A stretch of 64,000 bases of DNA from a virus (IMGVR_UViG_3300042465_005589:141741-205740); one strand, 5' to 3'. Shown: positions 719 through 58,103, numbered from the stretch's first letter. The notes: generated by a model not told the origin, from the letters alone. Program-made: numbers and translations.

Positions 719-745
719 CAAAGATACAAATAATATTTGAAACTA
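719..745 (-). promoter_or_regulatory. Copy of the conserved upstream motif (minus-strand reading ...TATTATTTGTATCTTTGTG...), which contains a TAnnTTTG -7-like element.
   Basis: About 19 nt upstream of the preferred start of 277..702. Confidence 0.45.
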
Positions 746-771
746 TCCAAAAAAAATATTATATTTGTTAT

Positions 772-2178
772 ATGAAAAATGCAATTAATTTATTAATGGA
801 AAAGTGGATTAAAGGTGTGGATACATATACCCACAATGGTTCTACTTGGTTAATATTTACCGATTCCAAAAAATGGGTAATTGAACTAACCGATTCTAAA
901 ACCCTATGGTATAACTACAACTTCTTCAAACAAATATTTGATTTCACTTCGTTGGATGTTGTGGAGAATCAATCATACATCACCAAATGGGTGGAAGATA
1001 ATATTATCAATGGGGTAAACCATACCGGAGCACCTGATTGGAATAGAGATAAGGTTGCCAAATATGCAATTGAAAATGGTGTGAAGAACACCAAACAATC
1101 ACATATAGATAACCGAATCCAAGAACGTGTTGAAGGTACCATTGAAAATGGGGTAAAGAAAACCAATTATAAATCTCTAGTGACAAGAGGTAATATTGAA
1201 GACATCATTGATGGCGGGGTTAAGGAAACTATTAGTACACTACGACGTACTCTTCTTGGGGTTGACGATATCATTCAAAATGGAATAAAAGAAACCCGTT
1301 TGGAAATGAACATTACTGAAGGAGAAGTTGATGACATCATTCAAGATGGGGTGAAACACACCTTTGGTGATAAGTGGCATAAGCATAATTTTGTTGAAGA
1401 CATAATTCAAAATGGTGTAAGAGATACACAGAGTAACCCGTATGAAAATACAAGTTGGATTGAAGGTGTTATTAAAAAAGGTGTAAAACTTACCGGACGC
1501 ATTCATAAAGATTATACTGAAGTTGTTGAATACCTTATTGAAAATGGTGTGAGGAAAACCTATCACGACACAGATAACTATACTGACGATGTGAAAGAAG
1601 TCATTAGAGAAGGTGTGAAAGAAACAAAGGAGATGTTGGATTGGGTTTGTACCGACCGAATGTTATCTAATGTTCTTGAAAATGGTGTGAGAACTTCCCA
1701 CCCACGTGCATATGTAGATGAAAAAATGATTGATAAGGTGATTGATAAGGGTGTAATAGAAACCCACGATGATGTATATCACCACAAAGGAAGAATTGAT
1801 GGTGTGATTAAGAATGGTATTAAAGAAACGTTGAAAGCATCATATCTTAATGTTGATGATGTAATTCAAGATGGTGTTAAAGAAACAAAAACACCCGGTG
1901 ATTGTGACCTTGTATCAACCATTGAATGGATGAATGAAAATAATACCAGTAATGTTCCCATAATGATTGATGATGTTATTGAGAATGGTGTTAAAGAAAC
2001 TGTGGCAGCCGGATGTGTTGACAAAAAGACGGGTATTTTTCATTATCGGATTCAAGAACAAGTTGATGATGTTGTTGACAATGGTGAAAAAGTTAACGGA
2101 ACTTACGCTGGCGGTCAACGTCAAAGTGAAAAATGTAAATCCGTTGTTGAATATGGAACAAAAAACCCCACCGATTAG
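772..2178 (+). CDS. Tandem-repeat protein with about 16 copies of a 22-24 aa unit (core [VI]xxIIxNGVKET). Possible surface or structural protein.
   Basis: Repeat units are visible in the translation (IENGVKNT, IENGVKKT, IIDGGVKET, IIQNGIKET, IIQDGVKHT, IIQNGVRDT, VIKKGVKLT, LIENGVRKT, VIREGVKET, VLENGVRTS, VIDKGVIET, VIKNGIKET, VIQDGVKET, VIENGVKET). A TATATTTG -7-like motif lies 6 nt upstream of the ATG. Confidence 0.7.
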   Translation: MKNAINLLMEKWIKGVDTYTHNGSTWLIFTDSKKWVIELTDSKTLWYNYNFFKQIFDFTSLDVVENQSYITKWVEDNIINGVNHTGAPDWNRDKVAKYAIENGVKNTKQSHIDNRIQERVEGTIENGVKKTNYKSLVTRGNIEDIIDGGVKETISTLRRTLLGVDDIIQNGIKETRLEMNITEGEVDDIIQDGVKHTFGDKWHKHNFVEDIIQNGVRDTQSNPYENTSWIEGVIKKGVKLTGRIHKDYTEVVEYLIENGVRKTYHDTDNYTDDVKEVIREGVKETKEMLDWVCTDRMLSNVLENGVRTSHPRAYVDEKMIDKVIDKGVIETHDDVYHHKGRIDGVIKNGIKETLKASYLNVDDVIQDGVKETKTPGDCDLVSTIEWMNENNTSNVPIMIDDVIENGVKETVAAGCVDKKTGIFHYRIQEQVDDVVDNGEKVNGTYAGGQRQSEKCKSVVEYGTKNPTD

Positions 2179-2192
2179 GATGGGGTTTTAAA

Positions 2193-2651
2193 TTATATTT
2201 CTTCTCCGAAAATATCATCGGTCCAATTCTCGGGAATCATTACAATAATATATCCTTGTCTAACTTCAATTAATGATTCCGGAACCACACCATTAAGTTG
2301 TTCCATTATTTCAGGTCGTTCTTTAAAAACAACTCTCAACTTACCATCAGGAGCAGTATCAACAACTTTGTGGTTAAACCCATCCATAATTTCCTTGAAT
2401 TTATCAAGTCCTCCGAAATCTTCAGATTCTTCAGAATCAATATCCAATTCACCACCCAAAAATCTTTCAGGTACATTACTCTCACCACCACTCTTTAAAT
2501 ATTTAATTTCTTCATCAGTCATACCCTCAAGTCCAACCTCATTATATAAATCTAAAATAATATCGTAGTAGTCATAATCAAATTGTTCATCCAAAAGTTT
2601 TAACACAATTTTTTTTAAATCCGATTCCGTTAATTTTATAATCTTTTTCAT
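2193..2651 (-). CDS. Hypothetical acidic protein with an N-terminus (MKKIIKLTESDLKKIV) related to the ITE family.
   Basis: 152-aa ORF that lies antisense between two plus-strand genes and has protein-like composition. Confidence 0.5.
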   Translation of the reverse strand: MKKIIKLTESDLKKIVLKLLDEQFDYDYYDIILDLYNEVGLEGMTDEEIKYLKSGGESNVPERFLGGELDIDSEESEDFGGLDKFKEIMDGFNHKVVDTAPDGKLRVVFKERPEIMEQLNGVVPESLIEVRQGYIIVMIPENWTDDIFGEEI

Positions 2652-2723
2652 ATCAATAAATATGCAAAAAAAATATTAAAAACAAAGGGGCGTTAATTTT
2701 AAATCTATTAAGTATTTATAGAT

Positions 2724-4310
2724 ATGTCAAATATCATAAAATATAATTTAAGTACATCACCAAATTCAATACAATCAGGTAATTTTAATGTTGCTGTTAA
2801 TAATACTCCAACAAATTTAACCGGATTTTATAACGGAATTTCCCCAATAAATGGGGGTTACACCATTTACATTAATAAAGAGTCTAATGGACCATCCATT
2901 TACGTCCCACAAAATGATAGTGATTTAATTCAAATAGTTAAACAATTGGGGGGTAATGTTTCAACTGCAGCGGAAGCTTTGGTTTGGATTAATTCTCAAA
3001 GTAATATGACGGTTCTAAATAATAATTACCCCTCAATTGTAACCAGTGGACTTGTATTAAATGTAGATGCAGGATTTGTATCTTCATACCCAAAAACCGG
3101 AACAACTTGGAAAGATTTGAGCGGTGGTGGAAATAACGGTACTTTAGTTAATGGACCAACTTATAGTAGTGGGAGTATAGTTTTTGATGGCGCGGATGAT
3201 AGAGTTCAGACAACATATTCTCCAAATTTTGGGGATTTTACAGTTTGTCTTATTTTTAAAGATAATGGTTCAAATGCTTGGGGGAGATTAGTAGATAAAT
3301 TATATACTACAGGTTTTTTCATTTCAAGCTATTTTGCATCATCAGGCGCTAATTACGTAGGCGCCGGAATAATAGAGCCTAATTATCCTTACGGAATAGC
3401 ACTTCCTTATGAATCAGGAAAGTATCACTATTTCGCCTCAGTTAGAAACGGAACAACTCATACAATCTACCTAGATGGTATTACCCAAACCACAAGCAAA
3501 ACAGTATCTTCTAATCTTCTAGATAGTACTTCTATCGCCTTTGGGGATTGGAGCGGGGGGGTAAGTCAACCTTTTAAAGGTGATTTACCATATGTTCAAA
3601 TTTACAACAGAGCACTCTCAGCCGCTGAGGTTCTACAAAACTATTACGCAGGACTACAAAGATTTATACCAACAGACGGATTAGTACTTTCATTAGATGC
3701 TCAAAATACAAATTTATATGCAATCTCTCCAACCACAGCATACGATGTGAGTGGGAATAATATAAATGGTACATTAACAAATGGTGTTCAATATGTTGGT
3801 GATGGAAATGGTTCATGGAGATTTGACGGGGTTGATGATGTGATAACATTAGGTTATCAACCATTATTAAATAATACTGATATAACACAGGAAGCTTGGG
3901 TTAATGGAAATTCTTTTACGAGTTGGCACGGAATTATTTCAAACATGCCTTCTTGGGGGACAGGGTTTAGTTTACAAATTGGTATAATACAAAATATTGC
4001 GGCAATGGTTAGTGGGACTTATTTGAAAACTTCTTGGGCGCCCTCTGTAAATGTTTGGTATCACATTGTGGCAACACATAGAAGTAGTGATAATTTCACT
4101 GCATTATATGTTAATGGTGTTTTAGAAAATACAACAACGCAAGCGGTAACTTATTCTGAAAATGCGATAACAACAATAGGGGTTTTTTATACTTCAGGGT
4201 CATTACCATTTAATGGTGAGATTGGGTCTGTTAAAACATACAACAGAGCATTAACGGCAACAGAAGTAACAACAATATATAACGCAACTAAATCAAGATA
4301 CGGATTATAA
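2724..4310 (+). CDS. Protein with two tandem LamG-like (Laminin_G_3 / concanavalin-like) domains. Candidate receptor-binding or tail-fibre-associated protein.
   Basis: Two repeated modules. The first runs W-KDLSGGGNNGTLVNGPTYSS...FDGADDRV and ends ...YNRALSAAEVLQNYY. The second runs YDVSGNNINGTLTNGVQYVGDG...FDGVDDVI and ends ...YNRALTATEVTTIYN. These are characteristic Laminin_G_3 motifs. Confidence 0.65.
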   Translation: MSNIIKYNLSTSPNSIQSGNFNVAVNNTPTNLTGFYNGISPINGGYTIYINKESNGPSIYVPQNDSDLIQIVKQLGGNVSTAAEALVWINSQSNMTVLNNNYPSIVTSGLVLNVDAGFVSSYPKTGTTWKDLSGGGNNGTLVNGPTYSSGSIVFDGADDRVQTTYSPNFGDFTVCLIFKDNGSNAWGRLVDKLYTTGFFISSYFASSGANYVGAGIIEPNYPYGIALPYESGKYHYFASVRNGTTHTIYLDGITQTTSKTVSSNLLDSTSIAFGDWSGGVSQPFKGDLPYVQIYNRALSAAEVLQNYYAGLQRFIPTDGLVLSLDAQNTNLYAISPTTAYDVSGNNINGTLTNGVQYVGDGNGSWRFDGVDDVITLGYQPLLNNTDITQEAWVNGNSFTSWHGIISNMPSWGTGFSLQIGIIQNIAAMVSGTYLKTSWAPSVNVWYHIVATHRSSDNFTALYVNGVLENTTTQAVTYSENAITTIGVFYTSGSLPFNGEIGSVKTYNRALTATEVTTIYNATKSRYGL

Positions 4311-7437: not shown

Positions 7438-7508
7438 CAAAAAAAGGGGCGGGGGGATTTTAATTCGACCGGAGGAAGATTGGGTGGGGAATAACGTTAC
7501 CACCAACC
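7438..7508. repeat. Intergenic repeat copy A (AAAAAAAGGGGCGGGGGGATTTTAATTCGACCGGAGGAAGATTGGGTGGGG...).
   Basis: It shares the AAAAAAGGGGGCGGGGGGATT head with copies B and C. It sits directly upstream, on the coding strand, of gene 6379..7416. Confidence 0.55.
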
Positions 7509-7627: not shown

Positions 7628-8458
7628 TTACTTATTTAAATATTCTTTATACTCTTTCTCTAACACTTCTCTACTATCCGTTAAATAATCATTTTTAGAT
7701 AACCAATCAAATAACCACCTTGTTTGGTAATGAAATACATTATTATAAACTTTCTCTTCTCTAATTCTAAATCTCTCATTACTCTCCTCAACAAACTTAC
7801 TTGGTTCCTTAGATACAATCTTTTCCAACTTCTCACTAAGGGTTTCTACTTTACCAAAATATTTCTTTGGAACCATAAGTGGTCTAACTATTTCGTCCTT
7901 AACCTCAATACCCACCTTAGTTATGTACCCATAATCAACTCCAGTACAGTCATTACAATTTTCACACTGAAAACTACATTGTTCTCCGTAGTCAACCTCA
8001 TCACCACAATAGAAATTCTTTATTGGAAGAATGATTTTGTAAAATGAAGATTCATAAAATTCCATTGCCCCATCATAATGACCTCCTGTTCTATATATCT
8101 CAACTTCCTCACATCTTTGATTCTTCACAAACCACTTAAGGAACTCATCACTAATTTCCTGAACACCATCTTTTTGAAGGTCTAAGTCTGTTGTTAATAT
8201 CACTTTGTTTTTAAAATTACCTTCATCTCTTGGTCTTGCTTGAAACACACTTCCTTCATATACATAATAGTCTTTATCATATACGCCTTCTTCATCATTA
8301 GTGATGTACAAATTATGTGTAGATTTAATGTCTGTATGATACTTTGGAAACTCACATAGTTGATATGTTCTTTCTTGGCTATTGTAATATAGCCTACTTG
8401 TGTGTTCCGTTGGTAATACGTGTATGTTTTTCATTTTATTTCTTTTTAAATTGTTCAA
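7628..8458 (-). CDS. Hypothetical protein with a Cys-rich C-terminus, tandem paralog of 8436..9116.
   Basis: It shares a roughly 110-aa N-terminal domain (YDKDYYVYEGSVFQARPRDEGNFKNKVILTTD...) at about 85% identity with the neighbouring gene. The DNA blocks 8187-8299 and 8861-8973 are nearly identical. Confidence 0.65.
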   Translation of the reverse strand: MNNLKRNKMKNIHVLPTEHTSRLYYNSQERTYQLCEFPKYHTDIKSTHNLYITNDEEGVYDKDYYVYEGSVFQARPRDEGNFKNKVILTTDLDLQKDGVQEISDEFLKWFVKNQRCEEVEIYRTGGHYDGAMEFYESSFYKIILPIKNFYCGDEVDYGEQCSFQCENCNDCTGVDYGYITKVGIEVKDEIVRPLMVPKKYFGKVETLSEKLEKIVSKEPSKFVEESNERFRIREEKVYNNVFHYQTRWLFDWLSKNDYLTDSREVLEKEYKEYLNK

Positions 8459-9116
8459 ACCATCCTAATTTAACAGTATCTTTATGTTTTTGTTCAAAGT
8501 AAGTACAGTGCTTTTCAACTATCTCATTAATCATCACTATAACTTCTTCCTCACTATAACTTCTTTTTTGTTGCCATTTAGCACCAAATTTCATAGCTCC
8601 TAATACAAATCCTTTAGTAAGTTGTCCACAAAAATTAGTTTCCATAAATTTTTCAAAAGCTTCTTCAAGTGTTTCTTTAGATTCTTGTTTTGGTTCATCA
8701 GCAAAGTACATTCTTCTAATATGATATTTCCCAAATGTATATTTTCCGTTTATAAAATCTCCTTCTACTATTTCAACTTCCTCACAACTTGGATTCTTTA
8801 CAAAAAATTGTAAAAACTCATCATCAATCTTTTGCACACCATCTTTGATTAAGTCTTGGTCTGTTGTTAATATCACTTTGTTTTTAAAATTACCTTCATC
8901 TCTTGGTCTTGCTTGAAACACACTTCCTTCATATAGATAATAGTCTTTATCATATATACCTTCTTCATCAGATGTTATATACACATACTCGTGGGAACAC
9001 TTGGTACATTCGTTACTATTGGAATGGGATAAATTATCAAACCTCAATTTATTGGAATCCAAATCTCTCCACAATCTACTCTCCTTATCGGTGGGAATTA
9101 AAAATATGTTTTTCAT
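8436..9116 (-). CDS. Hypothetical protein, tandem paralog of 7628..8458 with a divergent C-terminal half.
   Basis: Conserved N-terminal domain. The promoter motif TATCTTTGT lies 13 nt upstream. Confidence 0.65.
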   Translation of the reverse strand: MKNIFLIPTDKESRLWRDLDSNKLRFDNLSHSNSNECTKCSHEYVYITSDEEGIYDKDYYLYEGSVFQARPRDEGNFKNKVILTTDQDLIKDGVQKIDDEFLQFFVKNPSCEEVEIVEGDFINGKYTFGKYHIRRMYFADEPKQESKETLEEAFEKFMETNFCGQLTKGFVLGAMKFGAKWQQKRSYSEEEVIVMINEIVEKHCTYFEQKHKDTVKLGWFEQFKKK

Positions 9117-9128
9117 AAATTATTTTTT

Positions 9129-9152
9129 TACAAAGATAACATTATTTTCCAA
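9129..9152 (-). promoter_or_regulatory. Conserved upstream motif copy (plus strand reads TACAAAGATAACATTATTTT).
   Basis: 13 nt upstream of the start of gene 8436..9116. Confidence 0.45.
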
Positions 9153-9639
9153 ACAATTCAAAAAATTTATCCTTATTTGTTTTCTCGGGTGGAAAAATAA
9201 ATGATTGAACGTGAAAGGTTATATAATCCATATCACTATAGGTCATCTTAAAATAATCATCAATCTCCTTACCGTATTCATTCTTACTTTTCTTCATACC
9301 ATTATGATTATTAAAATAGATATCAATACCAACCAAATACTTATATATCGGATTAAATGTCATAGGGTCATACACAGTTTGTTCTCTATAACCAACTGAA
9401 ACAACATCGTTAATCTCGGGACATAACTTCAAGATAACATCCTTGAATGTTTCGGGGATTGAAATCACCTTATTATCAGGAGACCCGTTGAGGTCAGGTT
9501 CAACACCTTTTTGTAATTCTCGTATAGGTTCATAATAATCCCGATAACATCCAGCAGGTCCGGTATCTATAATCCTATATGCCCCGTTTTCGTCTTCGTT
9601 TTCCATAATAACAATTAGAACATTTCTTTTACTGCACAA
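9142..9639 (-). CDS. Hypothetical protein.
   Basis: 165-aa ORF. Confidence 0.55.
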   Translation of the reverse strand: MCSKRNVLIVIMENEDENGAYRIIDTGPAGCYRDYYEPIRELQKGVEPDLNGSPDNKVISIPETFKDVILKLCPEINDVVSVGYREQTVYDPMTFNPIYKYLVGIDIYFNNHNGMKKSKNEYGKEIDDYFKMTYSDMDYITFHVQSFIFPPEKTNKDKFFELFGK

Positions 9640-10656: not shown

Positions 10657-10704
10657 AAAAAAGGGGGCGGGGGGATTTGAGAACGACCGAAGGGAGTCCG
10701 GGTT
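10657..10704. repeat. Intergenic repeat copy B (AAAAAAAGGGGGCGGGGGGATTTGAGAACGACCGAAGGGAGTCCGGGTTATC).
   Basis: It shares an identical 19-nt core, GACCGAAGGGAGTCCGGGT, with copy C. It sits directly upstream of 10259..10633 and overlaps the stop of 10703..11302. Confidence 0.6.
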
Positions 10705-11302
10705 ATCTTTCATTATAAAAATCATCTAAAAATATTTCCAAAGAAGTTTTAGTATTATTTCTCATCATACTAAGTTTTATTAATCTATTGTAATCATCAC
10801 TCCCCTTAACAAATGTTTTAGAAAGACCAACTTGGGTATTACCCTCATTTGACTTTTTTGTCCCATTTTGATATGTTAAATTAAACTCTTTCACAAATGA
10901 ATATAATGGAATACAGTAGTATTCCGTATTAAAATTATCTAAAGCGTCTACGAAGGTAATTAATAAAAAATCAAAATGTTGATAAGGTCTAATATTCTTA
11001 ACATTAAACTTCTTATTTACACTTATTGATAATTTATTTTCAAAAACAATATTCTCTTTAGTTTTTTTGGTTCTAAGAAAAAAATCACCATACCCTAATG
11101 ATGCGGGAATAGGATACAAATACTTAAAATGATATAATAATTTATCCGTCCATTTATTACCATAAGACTGTGAATTACAATACAAGTAACAATTAATAAA
11201 AAATCTAATCCAATCCCCTTTGAATACAATATCTGAAATTACATTATGACTAACTAATTTCTTATTAGCTAATACCAATTCTTTTAATACGTTTTTTCTC
11301 AT
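10703..11302 (-). CDS. Hypothetical protein, weak candidate for a PD-(D/E)xK-type nuclease. The gene is bracketed by repeat copies B and C.
   Basis: The track ORF starts at a TTG (11308) and the first ATG is at 11300-11302. A possible D...(IVF)ENK motif (GYGDFFL ... IVFENKL) is the only functional hint. Confidence 0.5.
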   Translation of the reverse strand: MRKNVLKELVLANKKLVSHNVISDIVFKGDWIRFFINCYLYCNSQSYGNKWTDKLLYHFKYLYPIPASLGYGDFFLRTKKTKENIVFENKLSISVNKKFNVKNIRPYQHFDFLLITFVDALDNFNTEYYCIPLYSFVKEFNLTYQNGTKKSNEGNTQVGLSKTFVKGSDDYNRLIKLSMMRNNTKTSLEIFLDDFYNER

Positions 11303-11317: not shown

Positions 11318-11345
11318 GACAAAGATATAAATAATATTTTAATTA
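11318..11345 (-). promoter_or_regulatory. Conserved upstream motif copy (GACAAAGATATAAATAATATTTT).
   Basis: About 15 nt upstream of the start of 10703..11302. Confidence 0.45.
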
Positions 11346-11353
11346 TCCAAACA

Positions 11354-11430
11354 AAAAAGGGGGCGGGGGGATTGAACCCGACCGAAGGGAGTCCGGGTCC
11401 ACAGAGGTCCGTCATTCCCGACCCCAACCG
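11354..11430. repeat. Intergenic repeat copy C, the longest (AAAAAAGGGGGCGGGGGGATTGAACCCGACCGAAGGGAGTCCGGGTCCACAGAGGTCCGTCATTCCCGACCCCAACC).
   Basis: It sits upstream of 10703..11302 and overlaps the 3' end of 11412..11819. Confidence 0.6.
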
Positions 11431-11890: not shown

Positions 11891-13153
11891 TTAATGTCTA
11901 TTCCCTTGACTCTTGTTATCAGAACTCTCCTGTAACACCAAGTTATCATACGTACTATCACCACCTTTAGAATGTGGTTTATCCTTATGACCCCCATTTA
12001 TAACCTTACCGTTCTTAACCTGAAGGGGGGTGTAAATCTCAACACTACCATCCAACCTCGTAACAACACCTCCGGTCTCAATACACTTAGCCAACTTCTC
12101 CATCTCAGTGAACAATCTCTTAGAATCCAACTCATAGAAGTATTCCCCAATAAACGGGTGGAAATCATTATACATACACTCAAACTTATATTTCAAATTC
12201 TTAGTCATAGAACGACATAGATATGTCCAATTACTATTCATAGGATTCTTAAAGGTATCAATTATCCTCTGATTGTCCAATTCCAAATACTTATCAACAA
12301 ACTCAGATATCAAATCCTTATTCAATACACAGTTGTATTCACGACTCATATCCAATAAGAACATAAACAAATTAAATGAATTACCCTTAGTAATATCCGA
12401 TTTAGTTTCGTGTATCAAATTAATACACTTACCCCATACCTTCATAATGTCATTGAAATTCTTCTCATTGAATATTTCAACATTCTTATACATCAAATCC
12501 AAATTAGTAGTGTTCAATGTCTTGTCCTTTGATTGGTGATAAGATAAAAACTGACTAACCAATTCCAAATCTTTCATCCTTGAAAAGGTCAACCCACTTA
12601 TCTTTAATAACTCCCCACTATAATCAATACCGTTCTTACGAATAAACTCAGAAATAATCCCCTCCTCAGCATTCCTTCTCTCTTGGGGATTAGCAGATGT
12701 ATTACTGTTCAAATTAATGAAGGTTCTATGTAATTGATTCTTCGTAGCATTGAAAATATACTTTAAACTAATCTCACTATTGAAGAAGTCAAACATCATA
12801 TCACTCAATGGGGAATTCCAATCAATCTCATTATACTTCTCAATCAAAAACTCAGTCCTGTTCCCCCCATCTATTGAAATGTAACGATACCCCTGATTCC
12901 ATAAACTTGAAAAATATTCATAGTCCTTCGTATTATTCTGACTAAAGGAATATTCCATTGAAGACTTAATGTCACACAATACAATGTTACTCGCATCTGT
13001 ACCATCTAACAATGATAAATGATAACTAACCTTGTCGGTTTTCTTCCACACTTTTCTTCTTTGAATAGTTGGGTCATAATATACCCTATTCCCCTTAACA
13101 ATGTGAATGAACCCCTGAATTGTTTTTGACTCGTACTTCTTAATGATTCCCAT
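11891..13153 (-). CDS. Candidate GmrSD-like type IV (modification-dependent) restriction protein, with an N-terminal DUF262 (ParB-like) region and a C-terminal DUF1524 (HNH-like) region.
   Basis: DUF262-like motifs YYDPTIQRRKVW and ISIDGGNRTEF (compare xPxYQRxYxW ... IDGQQR). C-terminal GGHKDKPHSKGGDSTYDNLVLQESSDNKSQGN resembles the DUF1524 H..P...GG...NL.L...N..KGN signature. Promoter motif lies 27 nt upstream. Confidence 0.55.
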   Translation of the reverse strand: MGIIKKYESKTIQGFIHIVKGNRVYYDPTIQRRKVWKKTDKVSYHLSLLDGTDASNIVLCDIKSSMEYSFSQNNTKDYEYFSSLWNQGYRYISIDGGNRTEFLIEKYNEIDWNSPLSDMMFDFFNSEISLKYIFNATKNQLHRTFINLNSNTSANPQERRNAEEGIISEFIRKNGIDYSGELLKISGLTFSRMKDLELVSQFLSYHQSKDKTLNTTNLDLMYKNVEIFNEKNFNDIMKVWGKCINLIHETKSDITKGNSFNLFMFLLDMSREYNCVLNKDLISEFVDKYLELDNQRIIDTFKNPMNSNWTYLCRSMTKNLKYKFECMYNDFHPFIGEYFYELDSKRLFTEMEKLAKCIETGGVVTRLDGSVEIYTPLQVKNGKVINGGHKDKPHSKGGDSTYDNLVLQESSDNKSQGNRH

Positions 13154-13179: not shown

Positions 13180-13207
13180 GACAAAGATAATACTTTTTTT
13201 TTAATAA
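13180..13207 (-). promoter_or_regulatory. Conserved upstream motif copy (GACAAAGATAATACTTTTTTTTTTAATA).
   Basis: 27 nt upstream of the GmrSD-like gene start. Confidence 0.5.
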
Positions 13208-13426
13208 CCAAATTTTTTCCAGAATTTTTTTTTTCATATCTCATATTCCAATATACGATATGACCCCATCCGGAAATTTTCCGGATTACTAATCATTATT
13301 TCCGGATACCCAATTAACAGGGGGGATTTTCCCCAATTTTTTTCCAAAAATTTTTTAAGGTTTTTTTTCTCGAATACTTTGTTTAAGGGATTATCCCCCC
13401 TATTTGACTGTCAATATGTCATATAT

Positions 13427-13972: not shown

Positions 13973-14054
13973 ATGTTAATAAATATAATGAAATTTGTTT
14001 GTGGATACAAATCTTTTTTGTATCTTTGTACCACAGAATCGGTAATCAGTCCGG

Positions 14055-14096: not shown

Positions 14097-14414
14097 CTCT
14101 ATATTTATATATATCCCCCCATTTACTGAGAATATGATAATGGAGTATATATACTTCTGAAAATAATTGTTAATGAATCCCCCATTTTGTTGAGAATGTC
14201 ATAATTTATTTATATCTTTGTTAATTGACGGTGATTATCGCCGGTAACTATTAAACATTTAAACTATGATGATACTATTTAATATACTAATTGTGATGGG
14301 GGTTCTTATTTTCATTGGTGAAGTTGTGGCTCAGAAACTACCTAAAGACAATTCCTTTGTTATATGGTGGAGGAAACATATCATCGAACATTTATCCGAT
14401 GATGACCCCCGATT

Positions 14415-18130: not shown

Positions 18131-18243
18131 AATGATAAATATAATGTTTGGTGAAACAGTTTTAATTGTTATATTGACGTATTTTTTTATTTATAAATAT
18201 CTTACTAAGCGGAATAATTAAATATATGTTGTATCTTTGAAGT

Positions 18244-25047: not shown

Positions 25048-25072
25048 ACAAAGATAATACTTTTTTTAATAC
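25048..25072 (-). promoter_or_regulatory. Conserved upstream motif copy (GACAAAGATAATACTTTTTTTAATA) with no protein gene downstream on the minus strand.
   Basis: An ORF-free, GC-richer stretch of about 140 nt follows, then a hairpin terminator. Confidence 0.45.
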
Positions 25073-25167
25073 TACCAAACTTTTTTAAAGTTTTTTTTAT
25101 TTATTATCTAATTAACTTTAATGTCAGTAGTTATACGTATCATACATTAAAAAAGTTACAAAAACAT

Positions 25168-26790: not shown

Positions 26791-27038
26791 TAATGTTTTG
26801 ATTTACTTGCTCCGATTACAAGAAAAAAAAGTGACGGTATGGCAAATACCGCACTAACAGAGAACATTAAAATTATACAACCTAAAGATAAAAGGTCGTA
26901 TTTATTCTTTACTATAAAGTTTATTAAATTATCCATAGCACAAAGATAAATAAAAAACCCCAAGAACTCAACTCTTAGGGTTATTTTTTTTTTAACATTT
27001 ACAAATTCCATCACCACCTTTGGAAGGATTACAAACAC
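26790..27038 (-). CDS. Small membrane protein.
   Basis: Two hydrophobic segments. Confidence 0.45.
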   Translation of the reverse strand: MFVILPKVVMEFVNVKKKITLRVEFLGFFIYLCAMDNLINFIVKNKYDLLSLGCIILMFSVSAVFAIPSLFFLVIGASKSKH

Positions 27039-32457: not shown

Positions 32458-32485
32458 GTACAAAGATATACCATTTTTTTTAATA
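32458..32485 (-). promoter_or_regulatory. Conserved upstream motif copy (GTACAAAGATATACCATTTTTTTTAATA).
   Basis: 38 nt upstream of the SPFH gene start. Confidence 0.45.
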
Positions 32486-32496
32486 CACAACTTTTT

Positions 32497-33515: not shown

Positions 33516-34301
33516 TTATTTTAATTTTAATTTATTCATCATTCTTTTAAATACACTCTCTTTTTCAACTTTTGGTCTTTCAATTATTCTTGGTTCTATA
33601 GAATAACTCATTTGTTGTTCACCACCAATATATTGTTTCATTCGTTCTTGTTTTCTATAATCAGAAACAAAATCATCTCTTAATTGAAGGAACTCTCTCT
33701 GTTCTCTACCTCTATCCATATAAGAATATGGGTCAGCCGCTAATGGGGCTTTTTGTGTTACTCTATCATATTCTCTGTTTCTAACTACCCATTCTTTCAT
33801 TTGTTGAATTCTTGGATGGGTTTCAATCACAACCCTAACATCCGACCATCTACGACTTTGACTCATCGTCACATATTCATACAACAAATCCAAATAAGTT
33901 TTTCCAATGGTTCTATGTGGCGTGATGATAAGGATATTGAAATTAACTATAGTAGTCAAGTCATACCAATCTAATACTTTATCCGTTGATTCCATAATAG
34001 CACCAATTAAAACTTCAGTTTGATTATATTCCTCCTTCATTTTATAAACAAAACAATAATTCCCAACACCCCAATATTTTGTAAAATAAACCTCCGATAA
34101 CATTGTATTGTCTTTATCAATATGATGACCCAACTCTATATCAAGAAGTCTGTTGATAATTTTAGTTCTTCTATCTTCATCCTCACGGAAATTACGATTC
34201 CAATCGGGGTTAATCTTATAACCTCGTGAAACTAAATTTAAATAATCCGTATATTTTAATTCTCTTGCCATATGAGGCAAATATAAGACAAAAAAAATCA
34301 C
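33516..34301 (-). CDS. Hypothetical protein.
   Basis: 261-aa ORF. Confidence 0.6.
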   Translation of the reverse strand: MIFFVLYLPHMARELKYTDYLNLVSRGYKINPDWNRNFREDEDRRTKIINRLLDIELGHHIDKDNTMLSEVYFTKYWGVGNYCFVYKMKEEYNQTEVLIGAIMESTDKVLDWYDLTTIVNFNILIITPHRTIGKTYLDLLYEYVTMSQSRRWSDVRVVIETHPRIQQMKEWVVRNREYDRVTQKAPLAADPYSYMDRGREQREFLQLRDDFVSDYRKQERMKQYIGGEQQMSYSIEPRIIERPKVEKESVFKRMMNKLKLK

Positions 34302-34345
34302 CTAACAAATTATTAGGTGATATTATTATAAAAAAAGTTATTAAA

Positions 34346-41089: not shown

Positions 41090-41151
41090 AGTACAAAGAT
41101 AATACTTAATCCCATATAAACAAAAAAAAGGAACTAAATGTTCCTTTTTTT

Positions 41152-42072
41152 TTAATCTAATAATTCTATCTCAGTGTTATCATCCGTTAAGTATTTCGGA
41201 TAAGTTCTTAGTATGTCTTGTTTAATTGTATTTGTAATATTGTTCAATAACTCAGGATTGTCTCTAAAATTGGAATCCGGTATCATTTTCCTGTCAACCA
41301 TTTTACCAGCTTTAAGAACTTTGACAGATATTTTAATTTTACCATCAACATCCTCAATGTCTTTAATCATAAAATTAACTCTGTGAGCATTATCCCCCCA
41401 ACCTCCACTGATTAATTTTGATTGATTAGTTATTTTATCTTTATCTTTTACAAAGTTTGAAACTCTACTAGATTTAACCGTTTCAATGTTACGACTTCCT
41501 CGAATAAGACCTTCCATCTCATCTTTGGTAATACTCATAACATTTGCATTTAAGTTTGAATCAAATTTAACAGGGTTAACCTGACTCATTTGTTTTCTTG
41601 TAGAACTTGAATACGTTTCTAATGTTCTGTACCATTGGTCATTAATAAATAAGAACACTGGATACCACCCATATGATGTAATAACATAATACCAATCATT
41701 ATTATTATTTACATTCCACTGACCTTCAATATTTGAACCCTTAAACGGCATTCTAGCCGACGCATATTCATAAGCCGTATTATTAGTAACTTTTCTCTGT
41801 TTGAATTGTCTGAAATCCTTGAAATTCTCGTTTGTTAAATTTTCATAATCCCCTTCCGGTCTGAAGTTAGCCGTGTATACTTCATAATAAAAATGAGAGT
41901 CGTTTGGTGACATTCCAAGTACCGGTAAAATAGACCTTAAAAATTTTAAAAATTCAGGTTGAGTCTTAGTTTCCCTTTTATGTTTGTCAATATACTTAAA
42001 TAACATAATTTCCTTTTTAGTTAAAGGACCTTCTTGTTCTTCTCGTAGTATACGTCTAATTAGTTCTTTCAT
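41152..42072 (-). CDS. Hypothetical protein of the MKELIRRILRE family.
   Basis: 306-aa ORF with the conserved N-terminus. Confidence 0.6.
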   Translation of the reverse strand: MKELIRRILREEQEGPLTKKEIMLFKYIDKHKRETKTQPEFLKFLRSILPVLGMSPNDSHFYYEVYTANFRPEGDYENLTNENFKDFRQFKQRKVTNNTAYEYASARMPFKGSNIEGQWNVNNNNDWYYVITSYGWYPVFLFINDQWYRTLETYSSSTRKQMSQVNPVKFDSNLNANVMSITKDEMEGLIRGSRNIETVKSSRVSNFVKDKDKITNQSKLISGGWGDNAHRVNFMIKDIEDVDGKIKISVKVLKAGKMVDRKMIPDSNFRDNPELLNNITNTIKQDILRTYPKYLTDDNTEIELLD

Positions 42073-43810: not shown

Positions 43811-43836
43811 GACAAAGATAATACTATTTTTTTAAT
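43811..43836 (-). promoter_or_regulatory. Conserved upstream motif copy (GACAAAGATAATACTATTTTTTTAATA).
   Basis: 20 nt upstream of the start of 43517..43792. Confidence 0.5.
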
Positions 43837-43850
43837 ATACAAATTTTTTT

Positions 43851-44616: not shown

Positions 44617-44636
44617 AATTTAAGATTTAAATTCCC

Positions 44637-44663
44637 GACAAAGATAATACTATTTTTAATATA
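44637..44663 (-). promoter_or_regulatory. Conserved upstream motif copy (GACAAAGATAATACTATTTTTAATATA).
   Basis: 20 nt upstream of the start of 44107..44616. Confidence 0.5.
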
Positions 44664-44665
44664 AA

Positions 44666-44705
44666 CAAAAAAAACCTCAACAAATTTTACTCTGTTGAGG
44701 TTTCA
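44666..44705. terminator. Strong hairpin AACCTCAACA-AATTTTACTC-TGTTGAGGTT flanked by A and T runs.
   Basis: Perfect 10-bp stem that separates the plus-strand RHH/HNH module from the minus-strand block. Confidence 0.6.
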
Positions 44706-44849
44706 ATGTGTCCAACCGTAAGAAAGGGGTTGTTGGCTTATGAGATTATAAATATATCGTAAAATTAAAAAAGTTAATCTTTTTTATAATTATATTTACA
44801 AAAGTATAACTTTTCATACTTTTCGTGATATTTATATATAAAGACAATT

Positions 44850-45657: not shown

Positions 45658-46068
45658 AATTCTTTTAATTAAACGACATAGTTGGTCATTTTTGTCCTCA
45701 AATGGTAGGTTGTTAATATTGAAGTATGAGCACATAGAATGTTCATCACCATCGATAGCATTTTCCAAGTCAGGGTTGATTCTCTCATCCGTCTCCATCA
45801 TAAACACATACATCAATCCTTTAATCTCAGAACCATCACGATTATATCTTTTAACAAATCCAACTAAATTTAATTTATTATCTAACGTATAATTTGTTTC
45901 TTCTTTGAACTCTCTTTGGACCCCATCCATTGGATGTTCATCGTTTTCCAAATGACCACAAGGTATACTCCATTGTCCGGGCAAAGTACCTGTAGCATTT
46001 CTTTTACAAAGTAATACTTCATCACCACATTTAACAATTACACCGGAATATCGTTTAACTTCTTTCAT
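45649..46068 (-). CDS. NUDIX hydrolase.
   Basis: Nudix box GHLENDEHPMDGVQREFKEETNY. Confidence 0.7.
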   Translation of the reverse strand: MKEVKRYSGVIVKCGDEVLLCKRNATGTLPGQWSIPCGHLENDEHPMDGVQREFKEETNYTLDNKLNLVGFVKRYNRDGSEIKGLMYVFMMETDERINPDLENAIDGDEHSMCSYFNINNLPFEDKNDQLCRLIKRILQ

Positions 46069-46079
46069 TTTATATTTTT

Positions 46080-46445
46080 TTGTGTATTTATAAGTATATG
46101 GAACTAACTATAAACAAAAATAAATTCAAAGTCAAAACTGTTATATCTCCCAAAGACACTAGTCGTGGTATGATGAATAAAAGATTTGACGATACTTTTA
46201 ATGGTATGTTATTTATTATGTCAGATGGTCATCACTGTTTTTGGATGAAGAATTGTATAATTTCATTGGATATCATTATGATTGAAGACGATATTATAAC
46301 AAAAATTCACCACAACTGTCCTCCTTGTAAAACCAAAGATTGTAGAAACTATTGTGGTGAAGGTGATATGATACTTGAACTTCAAGGTGGTACCTGTAAA
46401 AAATTAGGGATTAAGTCCGGAGACAAAATCATTCATTACGATTGA
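46080..46445 (+). CDS. DUF192 (COG1430) family protein.
   Basis: RGMMNKRF...GMLFIMSDGHHCFWMKNCIISLDIIMIEDDIITKI...ILELQGGTCKKLGIKSGDKI. Confidence 0.5.
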   Translation: MCIYKYMELTINKNKFKVKTVISPKDTSRGMMNKRFDDTFNGMLFIMSDGHHCFWMKNCIISLDIIMIEDDIITKIHHNCPPCKTKDCRNYCGEGDMILELQGGTCKKLGIKSGDKIIHYD

Positions 46446-54203: not shown

Positions 54204-54524
54204 TTAATCTTTTTTTGTTAATCGTTTTATTTGTAGTAATAAATACTCTACTACGTTTTGTTTATCCACCTTTGTTAAAATAAATATCTTGGTTTTTGAC
54301 TTCCGTAAAATTAAAATACCAGTCGCATCATATTCATATAATCTATCTTTATAAACTATCTCATGTTCATTATTTACAAAATAGTCAAACCATAGTAAAA
54401 GTGATTTATTTAATAATTTATCTGTATCTTCATTAGACATATTTGGATACACCTCTACAATATTAGGGTAACTCTTAAACCTTTCTTTAAAGGTATCTAT
54501 ACAATTTTGTGGTATTTCTATCAT
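54204..54524 (-). CDS. Hypothetical protein.
   Basis: 106-aa ORF. Confidence 0.5.
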   Translation of the reverse strand: MIEIPQNCIDTFKERFKSYPNIVEVYPNMSNEDTDKLLNKSLLLWFDYFVNNEHEIVYKDRLYEYDATGILILRKSKTKIFILTKVDKQNVVEYLLLQIKRLTKKD

Positions 54525-54525: not shown

Positions 54526-56301
54526 TTAAAATCCTAAATCGTTCTCATCATTATAGACAGGAACAAGGTTATAATTATTATACGAATTTAATTTCATAAT
54601 TGAATCGTTTTCCCAACATAACCCCAATTTAGTTACATCTTTTCCTGTCTTAGTCACCGAATATGTTTTCACACTCATAGTACCCCAATCAGAGAACAAT
54701 TCTTTATTTTTAAACTCACCCTTAATTTGTAAGGTATCAAACAAATCCTCATATTGGTAAATTTTATTATCCAATTTGACTAACACTTCATTCCAACTCT
54801 CATCTAAACTACGATTGTGTTTACCCAAAGTTTGAACTCTCTCTAAATCAAAAGTATTATGTAGTGAAGGTAAAGTTATACGATATTCAATTGACGCTCT
54901 CTCTTCCGTTTCACCCTCACCTCGTCTCATAGAGATTAATAAAGAATCCACTCGTCTAACATATGTCTTAACACAATTGGACTGGAATGATGACTCATTG
55001 TTGTATCGTTTGGATGTTGTCAATACCTCCGGGAAGTACGGACCATCTTTGGTTAAGATAACCTCATTCACCTTATCCACAAACTCTTGGTTGTAAATTC
55101 TAGTAAAGTCACCATTGGTATAATGGTTGTATTTCTCCGACCAATCGTAGTGTTCTTGAACAAACTCATCGTGAGTTCTTGATGTCCATTTAACTGTCTC
55201 CATTTGGTCTAACAAACGATAAAATCTAAAGTGGTCTTCAATCACATTGTAGTTAATCAATCCTTTTTGAAATAATTTAAATATCTCAAAAAAATTGGAG
55301 AACTCTTTTTTAGTTAATAATCCTTTTCCAATATTATTATGAAATGTACTTTGTTTATTATGTTCCAATAATAATTGGACAAACTCATCCGGTTGATTTA
55401 AAATAAACTTCTCACCAAATATTGAACAAGCGTTATTAAAATTAAGAACACCCTCAAATGATTTAACGTTATGTAATACCCTTTTAACCTTATCCCCCTT
55501 TAATCCGTTAACCCTCATTAGAGCATCAATATACTTATAGTCACACTTCACCAAATCTTTCTTCTTTGGTTGGGGATAGACATTCATAAGTTCAAACCAA
55601 TTGTTTGGAACTTTGGTTCCTTGAGCATCCAAATATCTTTTGTAGATTCTTTGTTCAGGAAGTAAGTCGGCATATAATTCAGTTCCGGGAATGGCATTCA
55701 CAAAGGTTGAGATTACCTGATTAATAATTGTTGGGACATCCACCACTTTTTTATCAACTATTGAGTTCAACGAATCTCGTAAATGTCGTCTCATATTATT
55801 AATAGGGTCACTATTAAATAAAACTCTTCTAATTTTTTTACGACATTTTGTTTTCAAATGATAATTCTGTAATGAACCGGTATATAACGCATTTGTTTTA
55901 TAGTTGAATGTAATGAACTGACATTTAGTTCTTAATTTAAACCACTTACCCGCAACACGTCTTGTTTTACTATAATCAAATATCTTAAAAGAAACTTTAT
56001 CATTCTCTTTAGTCACACAAATAATTACCCTGTTCAAATATAATTGAGTCAGTGGGTTTCCGTAATGTTCTACGAATTTTTCTTCTGTATCATAATCCGC
56101 ATTAAAAGTATAGTCACCCCAAGGCGTATAACTTGTATGTCTACCAGAACTTAAACTAGTTTCTATTGTCCCCCAAAAATCATCCTCAACTTCTTTTTTA
56201 AGAGGTCGAATAGGATTGGTATCCAAGTATTCAGATACTTGATACTTCTTTACGGTATAGTTAAATAATTCTTCTTTCATCAGGTTTATTTTGAACCACA
56301 A
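54526..56301 (-). CDS. Hypothetical large protein.
   Basis: 591-aa ORF. Confidence 0.65.
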   Translation of the reverse strand: MWFKINLMKEELFNYTVKKYQVSEYLDTNPIRPLKKEVEDDFWGTIETSLSSGRHTSYTPWGDYTFNADYDTEEKFVEHYGNPLTQLYLNRVIICVTKENDKVSFKIFDYSKTRRVAGKWFKLRTKCQFITFNYKTNALYTGSLQNYHLKTKCRKKIRRVLFNSDPINNMRRHLRDSLNSIVDKKVVDVPTIINQVISTFVNAIPGTELYADLLPEQRIYKRYLDAQGTKVPNNWFELMNVYPQPKKKDLVKCDYKYIDALMRVNGLKGDKVKRVLHNVKSFEGVLNFNNACSIFGEKFILNQPDEFVQLLLEHNKQSTFHNNIGKGLLTKKEFSNFFEIFKLFQKGLINYNVIEDHFRFYRLLDQMETVKWTSRTHDEFVQEHYDWSEKYNHYTNGDFTRIYNQEFVDKVNEVILTKDGPYFPEVLTTSKRYNNESSFQSNCVKTYVRRVDSLLISMRRGEGETEERASIEYRITLPSLHNTFDLERVQTLGKHNRSLDESWNEVLVKLDNKIYQYEDLFDTLQIKGEFKNKELFSDWGTMSVKTYSVTKTGKDVTKLGLCWENDSIMKLNSYNNYNLVPVYNDENDLGF

Positions 56302-56330
56302 AAGTAAGACATTAAATTTAGATATACAAA

Positions 56331-56621
56331 TTAATTAAGGGAAAAGTGAGCGAATTTTGTGTGATAAATTATGGACTTAATCTTATCCATATCAACCTCA
56401 TCGTTCTGAGATTGTTTAAGAGCCACAACTATAGATATGATTTGTTTTTGAGTTAAGGAAACATCCTCACCATTATCAATATTATTTAAAGATTGTTGTT
56501 TTACTCTGTCGTAGAAGTCATCCTTCAAAACATCCCCAATTAACTCAAGTAAGTCATTGGGGTTGTTGTTAAAGAAAGTTATAAATTGATTAATGTAGAT
56601 TTCAACGTCAACATTTTTCAT
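56331..56621 (-). CDS. Hypothetical protein.
   Basis: 96-aa ORF. Confidence 0.5.
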   Translation of the reverse strand: MKNVDVEIYINQFITFFNNNPNDLLELIGDVLKDDFYDRVKQQSLNNIDNGEDVSLTQKQIISIVVALKQSQNDEVDMDKIKSIIYHTKFAHFSLN

Positions 56622-56644
56622 TTGTTTATTTTTAAGTATTAGTA

Positions 56645-58003
56645 TTAGTTAAAATAATAGAACCCCATTCCTTCATCTGTCAATCGTTCTTTTAATTTCT
56701 CAGGAATTTTAACATTCGGATTACTATCCTTTAAATTAATAAATGCCAATTCAGGTAAAGTCATTAAACATTCGGGCAACGATTCTAATTGTTTGTTATT
56801 TGGTAACGCCAAGAAATTTAATAATTTTAAATTACAGATTGAATCAGGAATACTTTTACAAATCTTCTCTAATTTTAACGCTTCTAAATTTTTAAATCTT
56901 CCAATAGATTCCGGAACCACCAACGCAATATCCTCGTTTGATTTATTACTAATTAATAATCTTTCAATCGTGTCCGGTAAACTATCAAATAATTCATCAA
57001 AACCATATAACGCAATGAATTTACCGGCAGCATTATCAGGGTATGCAATATCCACAACATTACCTGAACCACCTTTAACCAATCCTTTCGCAAACTGTGG
57101 TTTAAAATATTCTTTAAGTTCTTCACCTTTACCATTTAAAAATTCAACCAAATTAATTTGTCTGTCTCTCCTATCCATATATTGGTTTGAAGGGAAGTGA
57201 AATTGATATCTTTCTTTAGGTAATCCAGTCTTCTTACCAAATTCCGTAGCATTATTAGGTAAAATAACATATAATGGACCGTCTTTAATATAAGTGTAGA
57301 AATAACTACCACCAACGTTTGACGTACACCAATTAGTTTCATCAAACTCATCTCTCGTATCGTAGTAACCACCAAAGTAATCAGCCGCAGCGTCACCAAT
57401 TTTTGTTTTATCCTCTATTTTAACAATAGTCCAATTAGGACCAACGAAATCAATAGTAGACCCTTCAAATTTATAAGGGTTTTCTTTAGTAATTCTTTCT
57501 TCTTTTGCCGATTTAGAATCTTTAGTTAATTTGAATTCATCAACCGCTAATGATAAAGTTTGAGGAGTATACTTATTAATGTCTCTTTCACCTACAGGTA
57601 ATCTACTTTTAAATCTTTCAAATTTTAGTAAATCAACATTTAACTTATCCATATCTTCTATGAATAAACGTCGATATTCTTTAGCGTTTTGCTTATATTC
57701 CGGAGTACCTACTTCATCTTCTAATTTAGGTTGAATAAAGTTCTTCAACATCCATTGAACATATTTACCAACATGTATTTTACCCATGTCTTCAAAAGTC
57801 GCACTTTCTTTATCAAACCCTTGAGGGACAGTTGTTGAAGGGTCCCCAAAGATAATATTCTTTAATGTTTCAAAATCCATAGCGCCTTTAGGTTTTTCAC
57901 CAGGTTTTCTTGGTTTGTCAGAAGGTTTCACCAATTTGTCATATAAGACTTGGAAACGTGATTGTTCTGTAATTAAAGTTGATAGTGTATTAGTTAGTCT
58001 CAT
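56645..58003 (-). CDS. Protein with C-terminal leucine-rich repeats.
   Basis: LxxLxLxxN-type repeats (LEALKLEKICKSIPDSICNLKLLNFLALPNNKQLESLPECLMTLPELAFINL). The promoter motif lies 74 nt upstream. Confidence 0.55.
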   Translation of the reverse strand: MRLTNTLSTLITEQSRFQVLYDKLVKPSDKPRKPGEKPKGAMDFETLKNIIFGDPSTTVPQGFDKESATFEDMGKIHVGKYVQWMLKNFIQPKLEDEVGTPEYKQNAKEYRRLFIEDMDKLNVDLLKFERFKSRLPVGERDINKYTPQTLSLAVDEFKLTKDSKSAKEERITKENPYKFEGSTIDFVGPNWTIVKIEDKTKIGDAAADYFGGYYDTRDEFDETNWCTSNVGGSYFYTYIKDGPLYVILPNNATEFGKKTGLPKERYQFHFPSNQYMDRRDRQINLVEFLNGKGEELKEYFKPQFAKGLVKGGSGNVVDIAYPDNAAGKFIALYGFDELFDSLPDTIERLLISNKSNEDIALVVPESIGRFKNLEALKLEKICKSIPDSICNLKLLNFLALPNNKQLESLPECLMTLPELAFINLKDSNPNVKIPEKLKERLTDEGMGFYYFN

Positions 58004-58076
58004 TTTAATTGTTTTTATTATAAATATTTGTTTTTTCTAAATAATTCGCCAAAACCCATTTACTTTTGTTCAGCGG

Positions 58077-58103
58077 GACAAAGATAACGCTTATTTTTTG
58101 ATA
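58077..58103 (-). promoter_or_regulatory. Conserved upstream motif copy (GACAAAGATAACGCTTATTTTTTGATA).
   Basis: 74 nt upstream of the start of 56645..58003 and just after the stop of the Dam gene. Confidence 0.4.

Follow-up and report, generated by a model that had tools for sequence, protein, structure and literature searches.

The window analysed here is a 64,000-nucleotide stretch of viral DNA (IMGVR_UViG_3300042465_005589:141741-205740; positions are counted from its first letter), and its intergenic regions were found to carry a family of bipartite elements pointing at the adjacent genes. We consider it likely that about 17 of these elements are promoters of the type read by the primary sigma factor of a Bacteroidota host, that they often sit in terminator-plus-promoter cassettes, that they form an early class, and that the cassettes provide homology for recombination. 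The elements, designated class 1, are defined by a -33 box (TTTG or TTG), a spacer of 19-21 nt, and a -7 element TATCTTTG or its variant. The evidence was drawn from the architecture, enrichment, orientation and conservation of the elements, and from the breakpoints of gene insertions and deletions (indels) among related contigs.

The original prediction had listed nine copies of an extended 25-nt motif in the window. The repeat is real and far above chance, but its full 25-nt form was found at only part of the listed sites. For the 15-mer GACAAAGATAATACT with up to two mismatches, six matches were detected against 0.38 expected, and none of 100 shuffles reached six. Exact copies are located at 13180, 25047 (previously placed at 25048), 43811 and 44637, while a copy with one mismatch at 41092 had been missing from the list and the copy at 58077 is degenerate, with two mismatches. 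The other listed sites, at 719, 9129, 11318 and 32458, are not copies of the 25-nt motif, as they have in common only (T/C/G)ACAAAGATA and a loosely AT-rich spacer. On the coding strand this common part reads TATCTTTG(T), with the core TATCTTTGT. A total of 22 copies of TATCTTTG was found in the window, of which 14 are located in the non-coding share of about 11% (binomial p = 5.5e-9). As the sites were selected on TAnnTTTG, this enrichment constitutes the independent evidence. Copies at -41094, -26941, +14021 and +14213 (the sign giving the strand) had been overlooked, as had weaker TAnnTTTG sites at -34278 (TATATTTG) and -56299 (TACTTTTG). An unbiased screen of 8-mers, comparing non-coding with total sequence, retrieved the TATCTTTG core together with a more enriched sequence, TATTTATA. 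Generic TAnnTTTG was barely enriched (123 copies against 102 +/- 9); the signal is the specific TATCTTTG core plus the bipartite arrangement, not TAnnTTTG in general. A scan of the viral collection with the 15-mer AGTATTATCTTTGTC was discarded, the result being single, chance-like matches in more than 117 unrelated contigs.

The primary sigma promoter of Bacteroidota, as described for Bacteroides fragilis and Flavobacterium johnsoniae, consists of a -33 TTTG and a -7 TAnnTTTG, the latter revised to TAHHTTTG; the published -7 consensus is T-12, A-11, T-8, T-7, T-6 and G-5 without G at the variable positions, and transcription starts 4-5 nt from the G of the -7 element (PMC6847099). We aligned the 17 intergenic sites of the window on the core (14 with TATCTTTG, two with TATATTTG, and one with TACTTTTG). 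The -7 element TAnnTTTG without G at the variable positions was present in all 17, and a -33 box was located 19-21 nt upstream in 16 (TTTG in 12, GTTG in three, and ATTG in one). TTG at this distance was observed for 13 of the 14 intergenic copies of TATCTTTG and for none of the eight coding copies (Fisher p = 2.8e-5), which strengthens the earlier identification of the core as a Bacteroidota -7 element. For the composite TTTG-N17-21-TAnnTTTG, 20 matches were counted in the window, compared with 4.15 +/- 1.97 in dinucleotide-preserving shuffles. Columns conserved outside the selected positions were T -35, T -34, G at -33 or -32, G -16, T -15 and T -4, and the base 4 nt past the G is A in 11 of the 17 sites and a purine in 14. 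The T-rich block that had been taken as phage-specific is, on the coding strand, an A-rich spacer between the -33 and -7 boxes, which is present in only 5-7 of the 17 sites and differs between the orthologous promoters of relatives. Canonical sigma-70 promoters (TTGACA-N17-TATAAT) were not enriched, the first 20 kb containing 108, compared with 108.8 +/- 8.6 after shuffling. A near-perfect sigma-70 promoter, TTGACT-N17-TATACT at 40724-40752 on the minus strand, stands upstream of gene 40257-40694 and is kept in all four diverged relatives examined, its TATACT box differing by no more than one base; it is odd, as the other signals of this phage are of Bacteroidota type.

Orientation of the core was analysed in the window, its flanks and four diverged relatives, which altogether carry 41 copies of TATCTTTG, 28 of them intergenic. 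A start codon within 100 nt is faced by 22 of these 28, and by only two when they are read in the opposite sense. Within the window, the distance from G to ATG ranges from 4 to 75 nt, and each site points at the next gene. The spacing of 13-75 nt proposed for the minus-strand sites listed originally was essentially retained (14-75 nt, from G to ATG), except that the sole "gene" at 25049 is a 19-codon open reading frame (ORF). The proposed plus-strand sites before 772 (TATATTTG at 760) and 18244 (TATCTTTG at 18232) were confirmed, each 4 nt before the ATG. Exactly this distance was found at four sites in all (+760, +18232, -26941 and -41094), and a 6-nt distance at -34278. If the transcription start is placed as in Flavobacterium, the ATG 4 nt past the G predicts leaderless mRNAs at the 4-nt sites, and the mRNA of gene 772-2178 is probably leaderless.

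For conservation, we compared four relatives in which the ortholog of a 306-aa protein (window 41152-42072) is 75-87% identical; contigs that are 100% identical to the window (L001, L120, L122, L123 and L124) were left out as independent evidence. In the orthologous intergenic regions of the four relatives, TTTG, (A)GTAT and TATCTTTGT are retained, whereas the sequences of spacer and leader drift. The 4-nt gap to the ATG is preserved with different bases, tact in the window and tcgt in L125 and L126, and L126 and L127 retain an orthologous copy of the promoter at 32461. This footprint is what would be expected from selection on a bipartite promoter. An origin of the whole pattern by chance is close to negligible in our estimation: the window is AT-rich (about 31% G+C) with intergenic runs of A and T, and TAnnTTTG by itself is only weakly enriched, as noted above, but shuffled sequences gave 0.38 and 4.15 where 6 and 20 were observed, the strand bias towards genes is strict, and the motif is kept in relatives.

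We next describe the association of class 1 with terminators. Four hairpins, at 41130-41144, 44673-44702, 26956-26982 and 34298-34320, carry a T run that supplies the TTTG of the -33 box, and adjoin the promoters at 41094, 44639, 26941 and 34278, respectively. A C-rich element with a T run adjoins the promoter at 11320, and hairpins without an adjoining T run are located 20-70 nt upstream of that at 13182. A clear hairpin was detected at only about six of the 17 sites, with no convincing one elsewhere. Where the promoter sits directly after a hairpin terminator, the small accessory gene or gene pair that follows would form an insulated cassette.

Comparison with relatives indicated that indel breakpoints fall exactly on these cassettes. 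The 795-bp segment 43844-44637, encoding proteins of 169 and 84 aa, is missing from L125, L126 and L127, and in the comparison of window 39900-46200 with the relatives the alignments flanking this segment overlap by the 31-32 bp promoter repeat; the promoter at 44639 is the left-hand, and that at 43813 the right-hand, direct repeat of the indel. Conversely, a 246-aa gene present in L125 and L126 is bracketed there by two copies of a 73-bp cassette, of which the window has a single copy (41090-41162) and no gene. Near-identical cassettes would offer matching sequence at which recombination could add or remove gene cassettes, in the manner of PeSL elements. These elements of T4-type phages combine a strong host-type early promoter, an AT-rich stretch and a stem-loop, and their copies recombine to insert or delete genes in variable regions rich in genes that lack known relatives (Arbiol et al. 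2010, PMC2839356; Comeau et al. 2014, PMC4122927).

The position of the breakpoints exactly on the repeats, and the near-identity of four or five copies over about 30 nt, beyond what a sigma factor needs, could also be taken to mean that the repeats are mainly recombination or mobility sequences, or sites for a phage regulator, with incidental promoter likeness. We regard this as very unlikely, since the blocks, spacing, orientation and ATG distance match a known promoter type, the divergent copies retain exactly the promoter positions and lose the rest, and promoter function and recombination coexist in the published PeSL case. The copying of cassettes would itself account for four to five copies being more alike than sigma recognition needs. 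As a separate observation, a 1.6-kb insertion in L127 and L128, which holds genes for a sugar epimerase and a dTDP-sugar isomerase, has its breakpoint right at the upstream edge of a promoter of a second type, TATTTAT (42560-42573; described below), and the TATTTAT promoter region at 42499-42560 is 79% identical to another at L126:4975-5038; TATTTAT promoters may also act as recombination cassettes.

We then considered which sigma factor reads class 1. About 4 kb past the end of the window, the contig encodes a 266-aa RpoD-like sigma factor (L120:5337-6137, plus strand). The cellular proteins nearest to it (41-44% identity) are, with few exceptions, primary sigma factors of the FCB group, from Flavobacteriia, Crocinitomicaceae, Chitinophagaceae, Cytophagales, Balneolales, Ignavibacteria and Chlorobi, and nothing closer than 39% was found in the GenBank phage set. 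By alignment, the phage factor and Bacteroidota sigma-A have in common FISYAVWW(I/V)(R/K)QSILQ in region 2.3-2.4 and FNLT(R/K)ERVRQIKEKA in region 4.2, where SigA of Bacillus carries FSTYATWWIRQAITR and GVTRERIRQIEAKA, respectively. The phage factor is devoid of about 26 residues of region 3.0/3.1, and its region 1.2 is diverged. A Bacteroidota host, as originally proposed, is independently supported by this resemblance to FCB-group primary sigma factors, and the closest cultured phage, as judged by a structural protein, infects Flavobacterium. A promoter of the form TTTGG-N19-TATCTTTG precedes the phage sigma operon (L120:4721), and rpoD promoters in genome bins of Flavobacteriales and Crocinitomicaceae have the same form (L137, L146 and L147; about six rpoD promoters). 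Because the phage sigma operon carries such a promoter, the host sigma must be able to use at least one of them.

We infer that host RNA polymerase with its Bacteroidota primary sigma binds both the -33 and -7 boxes; the phage sigma-A-like factor may bind both boxes too. Transcription would begin 4-5 nt past the G, usually at A, and in four or five cases that A would be the A of the start codon, giving leaderless mRNAs. Reading of class 1 mainly by the phage factor, as a phage-specific middle class following expression of this sigma, appears unlikely to us. In favour of it, the factor is present on the contig with Bacteroidota-type regions 2.4 and 4.2 and the remodelling of regions 1.2 and 3.0/3.1 described above, and AGTAT before the -7 element and T at -4 are seen in most phage sites, the sigma-operon and host rpoD promoters having tcg or ccg and C instead, although this comparison involves a tiny host sample and the extra conservation can be explained by cassettes copied from one another. 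Against it, the compared recognition residues are identical in host and phage sigma, and the phage sigma operon itself relies on TTTG-N19-TATCTTTG, so that host sigma-A must read that one. A more elaborate scheme, which we hold to be possible but doubtful, is a two-sigma relay, in which host sigma-A fires only the sigma operon (tcg-TATCTTTG), the trimmed phage sigma takes the AGTAT-TATCTTTGT cassettes, and a third, T4-like late system reads TATTTAT-N4-A. If so, class 1 would be a middle class read by a captured and remodelled host primary sigma, and the third, late system would give mostly leaderless mRNAs.

The second motif of the 8-mer screen, (A)TATTTAT(A), bears on the timing of class 1. 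In the window, 36 of 66 copies of TATTTAT are non-coding, and TATTTATA is non-coding in 23 of its 27 copies, indicating a higher enrichment than for the class 1 motif. Of 26 gene-facing TATTTAT sites, 24 have an A 4 nt past the motif and 20 have a T just before this base; no upstream box was detected at the 26 sites. For 12 of them the conserved A coincides with the first base of the start codon, predicting leaderless mRNAs. A start is faced by 68 of 86 intergenic copies of TATTTAT, compared with 22 of 61 for its reverse complement. Examples are located at 2713, 36297 and 39309 on the plus strand, and at 6340, 7421, 10638, 18135, 24052, 30322, 42551, 48214, 52412, 58020 and 63961 on the minus strand. 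In the window, TATTTAT precedes the gene for a virion structural protein homologue (2724-4310). The nearest cultured phage is the T4-like Flavobacterium phage vB_FspM_immuto (hereafter immuto), with 34% identity in a 528-aa structural protein. Its non-coding DNA is also enriched in TATTTAT, which lies within 70 nt upstream of its terminase, portal, tail sheath, tail tube, baseplate hub, virion structural and tail fibre genes (L210 and L211), and at N4 before the gene heading the baseplate operon. By analogy with T4, TATTTAT-N4-A is probably a late promoter class, and it is plausible, by elimination and by the same analogy, that class 1 is the early, host-dependent class read by the host sigma. 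Both minimal and RpoD-like sigma factors have been reported for T4-like jumbo phages (PMC7824862).

Several observations weigh against class 1 as a set of early, host-read promoters. Class 1 and the TATTTAT class are interspersed rather than arranged in blocks, and three genes carry both. The site at 18232 is without a -33 element, and the promoters at 14021 and 25049 are without a convincing downstream gene. AGTAT, T at -4 and the near-identity of four to five copies exceed the published host consensus; this extended conservation may point to phage-specific recognition, or simply to cassettes that derive from a common ancestor. As the recognition signatures are the same, they do not tell host from phage sigma as the reader. 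Furthermore, the class 1 motif is absent from the intergenic DNA of immuto, where no TTTG-N19-TATCTTTG was found, and the repeated cassette of immuto is a different one, TTG-N-TATATTTAGG. Because immuto uses a different cassette, the exact class 1 motif would be specific to the phage clade of the window.

The cassettes of immuto form an array in L210:10900-26300 (NC_055915.1 60.9-76.3 kb), where each of about 25 small genes of unknown function has a near-identical cassette composed of an A-rich stretch, aGTTGC, often a hairpin between the boxes, TATATTTAGGTATCAATAATTAAAACA and ATG. The -7-like box of this PeSL-like array is TA(T)(A/C)TTTAG, with one A more than TAnnTTTG. In the window, TATTTAT-N4-ATG suggests revised starts for two minus-strand genes: 35431 instead of 35470 for gene 34346-35470 (motif region 35429-35470), and 21317 instead of 21338 for gene 20994-21338 (motif region 21315-21338).

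The source of the window is treated as a jumbo phage (about 315 kb) of a Bacteroidota host. By exact-protein matches, the window was found to be part of a 314,678-bp metagenome contig (JGI 3300042889, Ga0453676_0000002); near-identical copies of its DNA occur in several other metagenome assemblies, and exact-protein matches together with homology search yielded diverged relatives on metagenome contigs of 238-322 kb, among which gene content varies. The contig encodes phage-like functions, including a virion structural protein family, an amidase and peptidoglycan-binding domains, as well as homing endonucleases, DNA methyltransferases, endonuclease VII and a ClpP-type protease. About 100 small ORFs are packed in the window, mostly on the minus strand. 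Almost all of them gave no Pfam or PHROG match, and those with matches represent accessory functions such as methyltransferases, NUDIX, kinases, thioredoxin and DnaJ. Megablast of 12 kb of the window against GenBank phages gave no relevant match, and a search of IMG/VR with a 420-aa protein gave no close relative. No tRNA was found in the window, and no Rfam match at gathering scores, only chance-level matches appearing at E <= 1. The origin is probably fresh water, as judged from the ME20xx labels of genome bins and from JGI sample numbers in the range of the window contigs. The 99% identical relative L121 carries an insertion of about 700 bp (L121:19742-20438) at window 54204-54235, which encodes a GIY-YIG homing endonuclease.

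At the left end of the window, two class 1 promoters diverge from each other. The minus-strand promoter at 719..751 (TTTG, 21-nt spacer, TATCTTTG) is separated by 16 nt, from G to ATG, from the lipoprotein-like gene 277-702, and the plus-strand promoter at 736..767 (TTTG, 20-nt spacer, TATATTTG) has the ATG of gene 772-2178 4 nt past its G. On the minus strand, the promoter at 9131..9162 (TTTG, 20-nt spacer, TATCTTTG) lies 14 nt from gene 8436-9116; that at 11320..11351, with the same box, spacing and core, overlaps a TATTTAT, lies 17 nt from gene 10703-11302, and has the C-rich CCCCCCGCCCCC-T run (11359-11370) on its upstream side. The promoter at 13182..13212 represents an extended subclass, AAAAAATTTGG-TTATTAAAAAAAAAGTAT-TATCTTTGTCCC, and is located 28 nt from gene 11891-13153, with its upstream hairpins at 13234-13284, all on the minus strand. 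Two plus-strand sites follow: 13998..14028 (TTTG, 19-nt spacer, TATCTTTG), with no ORF of at least 45 codons, the cut-off of the gene model, starting within the next 237 nt, and 14189..14220 (GTTG, 20-nt spacer, TATCTTTG), at 45 nt from the 50-codon ORF 14266-14418. At 18232..18239 on the plus strand, only the -7 element TATCTTTG is recognizable, with the ATG of gene 18244-18528 4 nt past the G.

All remaining sites are on the minus strand. The promoter at 25049..25079, of the extended subclass, heads a unit of about 170 nt with a 19-codon ORF. At 26941..26982, the terminator hairpin overlaps the promoter (GTTG, 20-nt spacer, TATCTTTG), and an ATG stands 4 nt past the G. The promoter at 32461..32491 (GTTG, 19-nt spacer, TATCTTTG) lies 38 nt from the Band_7-type gene 31565-32422, and at 34278..34320 a hairpin overlaps a class 1-like promoter (TTTG, 20-nt spacer, TATATTTG) located 6 nt from gene 33516-34271. 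In the 73-bp terminator-plus-promoter cassette at 41090..41162, the hairpin is followed by a 19-nt spacer and TATCTTTG at 41094-41101; the hairpin T run becomes the -33 TTTG, and the ATG of gene 40754-41089 lies 4 nt past the G. Two further promoters of the extended subclass are located at 43813..43843, 20 nt from gene 43517-43792, and at 44639..44669, after the terminator hairpin 44673-44702 and 22 nt from gene 44107-44616. A weaker class 1-like promoter at 56299..56330 (TTTG, 20-nt spacer, TACTTTTG) lies 18 nt from gene 54526-56280. The promoter at 58079..58109 (ATTG, 19-nt spacer, TATCTTTGTCCC) is 75 nt from gene 56645-58003, and the TATTTAT at 58020-58026 lies between it and the ATG of this gene.

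Two regions that carry class 1 promoters are described here in more detail. The 1.7-kb stretch 13972-15713 carries the plus-strand promoters 14021 and 14213, several G6AT motifs and a hairpin, and within it neither a tRNA nor an Rfam match was detected. The minus-strand unit 24867-25079, of about 170 nt, encodes at most a 19-residue peptide (MSKKRGGNPNTSKDGDKEC) and is closed by a bidirectional terminator at 24867-24882, which is common to the convergent gene 24377-24862; this unit may be a gene for a small RNA or a micro-protein. A structured small RNA downstream of 14021 (about 100 nt) or 25049 was not supported, since folding was no better than that of shuffled sequences (z = -0.88 and -0.86). 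A G-rich element of about 50 nt was found in three copies (7446-7500, 10664-10715 and 11360-11415, plus-strand coordinates), each directly upstream of a promoter; it reads AAAAAAAGGGGGCGGGGGGAT..GA.CGACCGAAGGGAGTCCGGGT on the plus strand and ends with ..CCCCCCGCCCCC-T7 on the minus strand. One copy carries GGTTCAATCC, resembling a tRNA T-arm, and GGGGGGAT is non-coding in eight of nine copies. A tRNA-like or hairpin nature of the CCCCCCGCCCCC-T7 element was dismissed, because no tRNA is predicted by ARAGORN and a hairpin fold is lacking in two of the three copies.

These promoters would assign an uncultured clade of freshwater phages of about 315 kb to Bacteroidota hosts from sequence alone, and they provide a working promoter map of about 17 host-type and about 26 late-type predicted promoters in 64 kb. 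Use of the host's promoter type by a phage is what a specialist would expect, and current understanding is not overturned; greater interest attaches to the sigma-A homologue encoded by the phage, to TATTTAT as a late-type motif and to the mRNAs predicted to be leaderless. In practical terms, the cassettes are short, strong-looking and insulated predicted promoter parts for Flavobacteriia and relatives, for which few exist. Cassette-mediated gene shuffling, so far described for T4-like phages of Proteobacteria, seems to be at work here with a Bacteroidota promoter.

In comparison with the Bacteroidota sigma-A promoters, class 1 has both boxes, the spacing of 19-21 nt, an AT-rich spacer, variable positions without G (TC in 14 of the 17 phage sites), a likely start 4 nt past the G that is mostly a purine, and a location upstream of genes with orientation towards them. 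Host promoters of F. johnsoniae have AT-rich motifs at -18 and -28 (PMC6847099). The phage sites differ from host promoters in their location on a phage genome, in the almost invariant core TATCTTTGT, usually preceded by AGTAT, and in T at -4 (4 nt before the presumed start), where C was found in the few host promoters seen. The -33 element is also much less evident in the host (Baez et al.) than in the phage, where it was detected in 16 of 17 sites. In the literature, we found no mapped promoters of Bacteroidota phages.

Late promoters of T4 consist of TATAAATA at -13 to -6 and are recognized by gp55 together with gp33 and the sliding clamp (PMC1524935). The TATTTATA of the coding strand is the reverse complement of this T4 consensus, the implied start, 4 nt past TATTTAT, would be nearer than that of T4, almost half of the window copies would give leaderless mRNAs, and no gp55 homologue was identified in this analysis. 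Like the T4 late promoter, however, TATTTAT(A) is a short, AT-rich, -10-type element without an upstream box, at a fixed distance from a conserved A, and in immuto it stands before structural genes.

The cassettes of the window differ from PeSL in having a Bacteroidota -33/-7 promoter instead of one of sigma-70 type, in the position of the stem-loop upstream of the -33 element with the T run common to both, in the lack of a Shine-Dalgarno sequence, with some genes starting 4 nt past the -7 element, and in the limited number of sites with a clear hairpin. As in PeSL, nevertheless, the elements are small composites of a predicted host-type promoter with AT-rich sequence upstream and, at the sites that have one, a putative stem-loop terminator. 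They recur many times where small genes lacking known relatives abound, and extra genes present in one genome are bracketed by two copies, whereas a single copy is found where the genes are absent.

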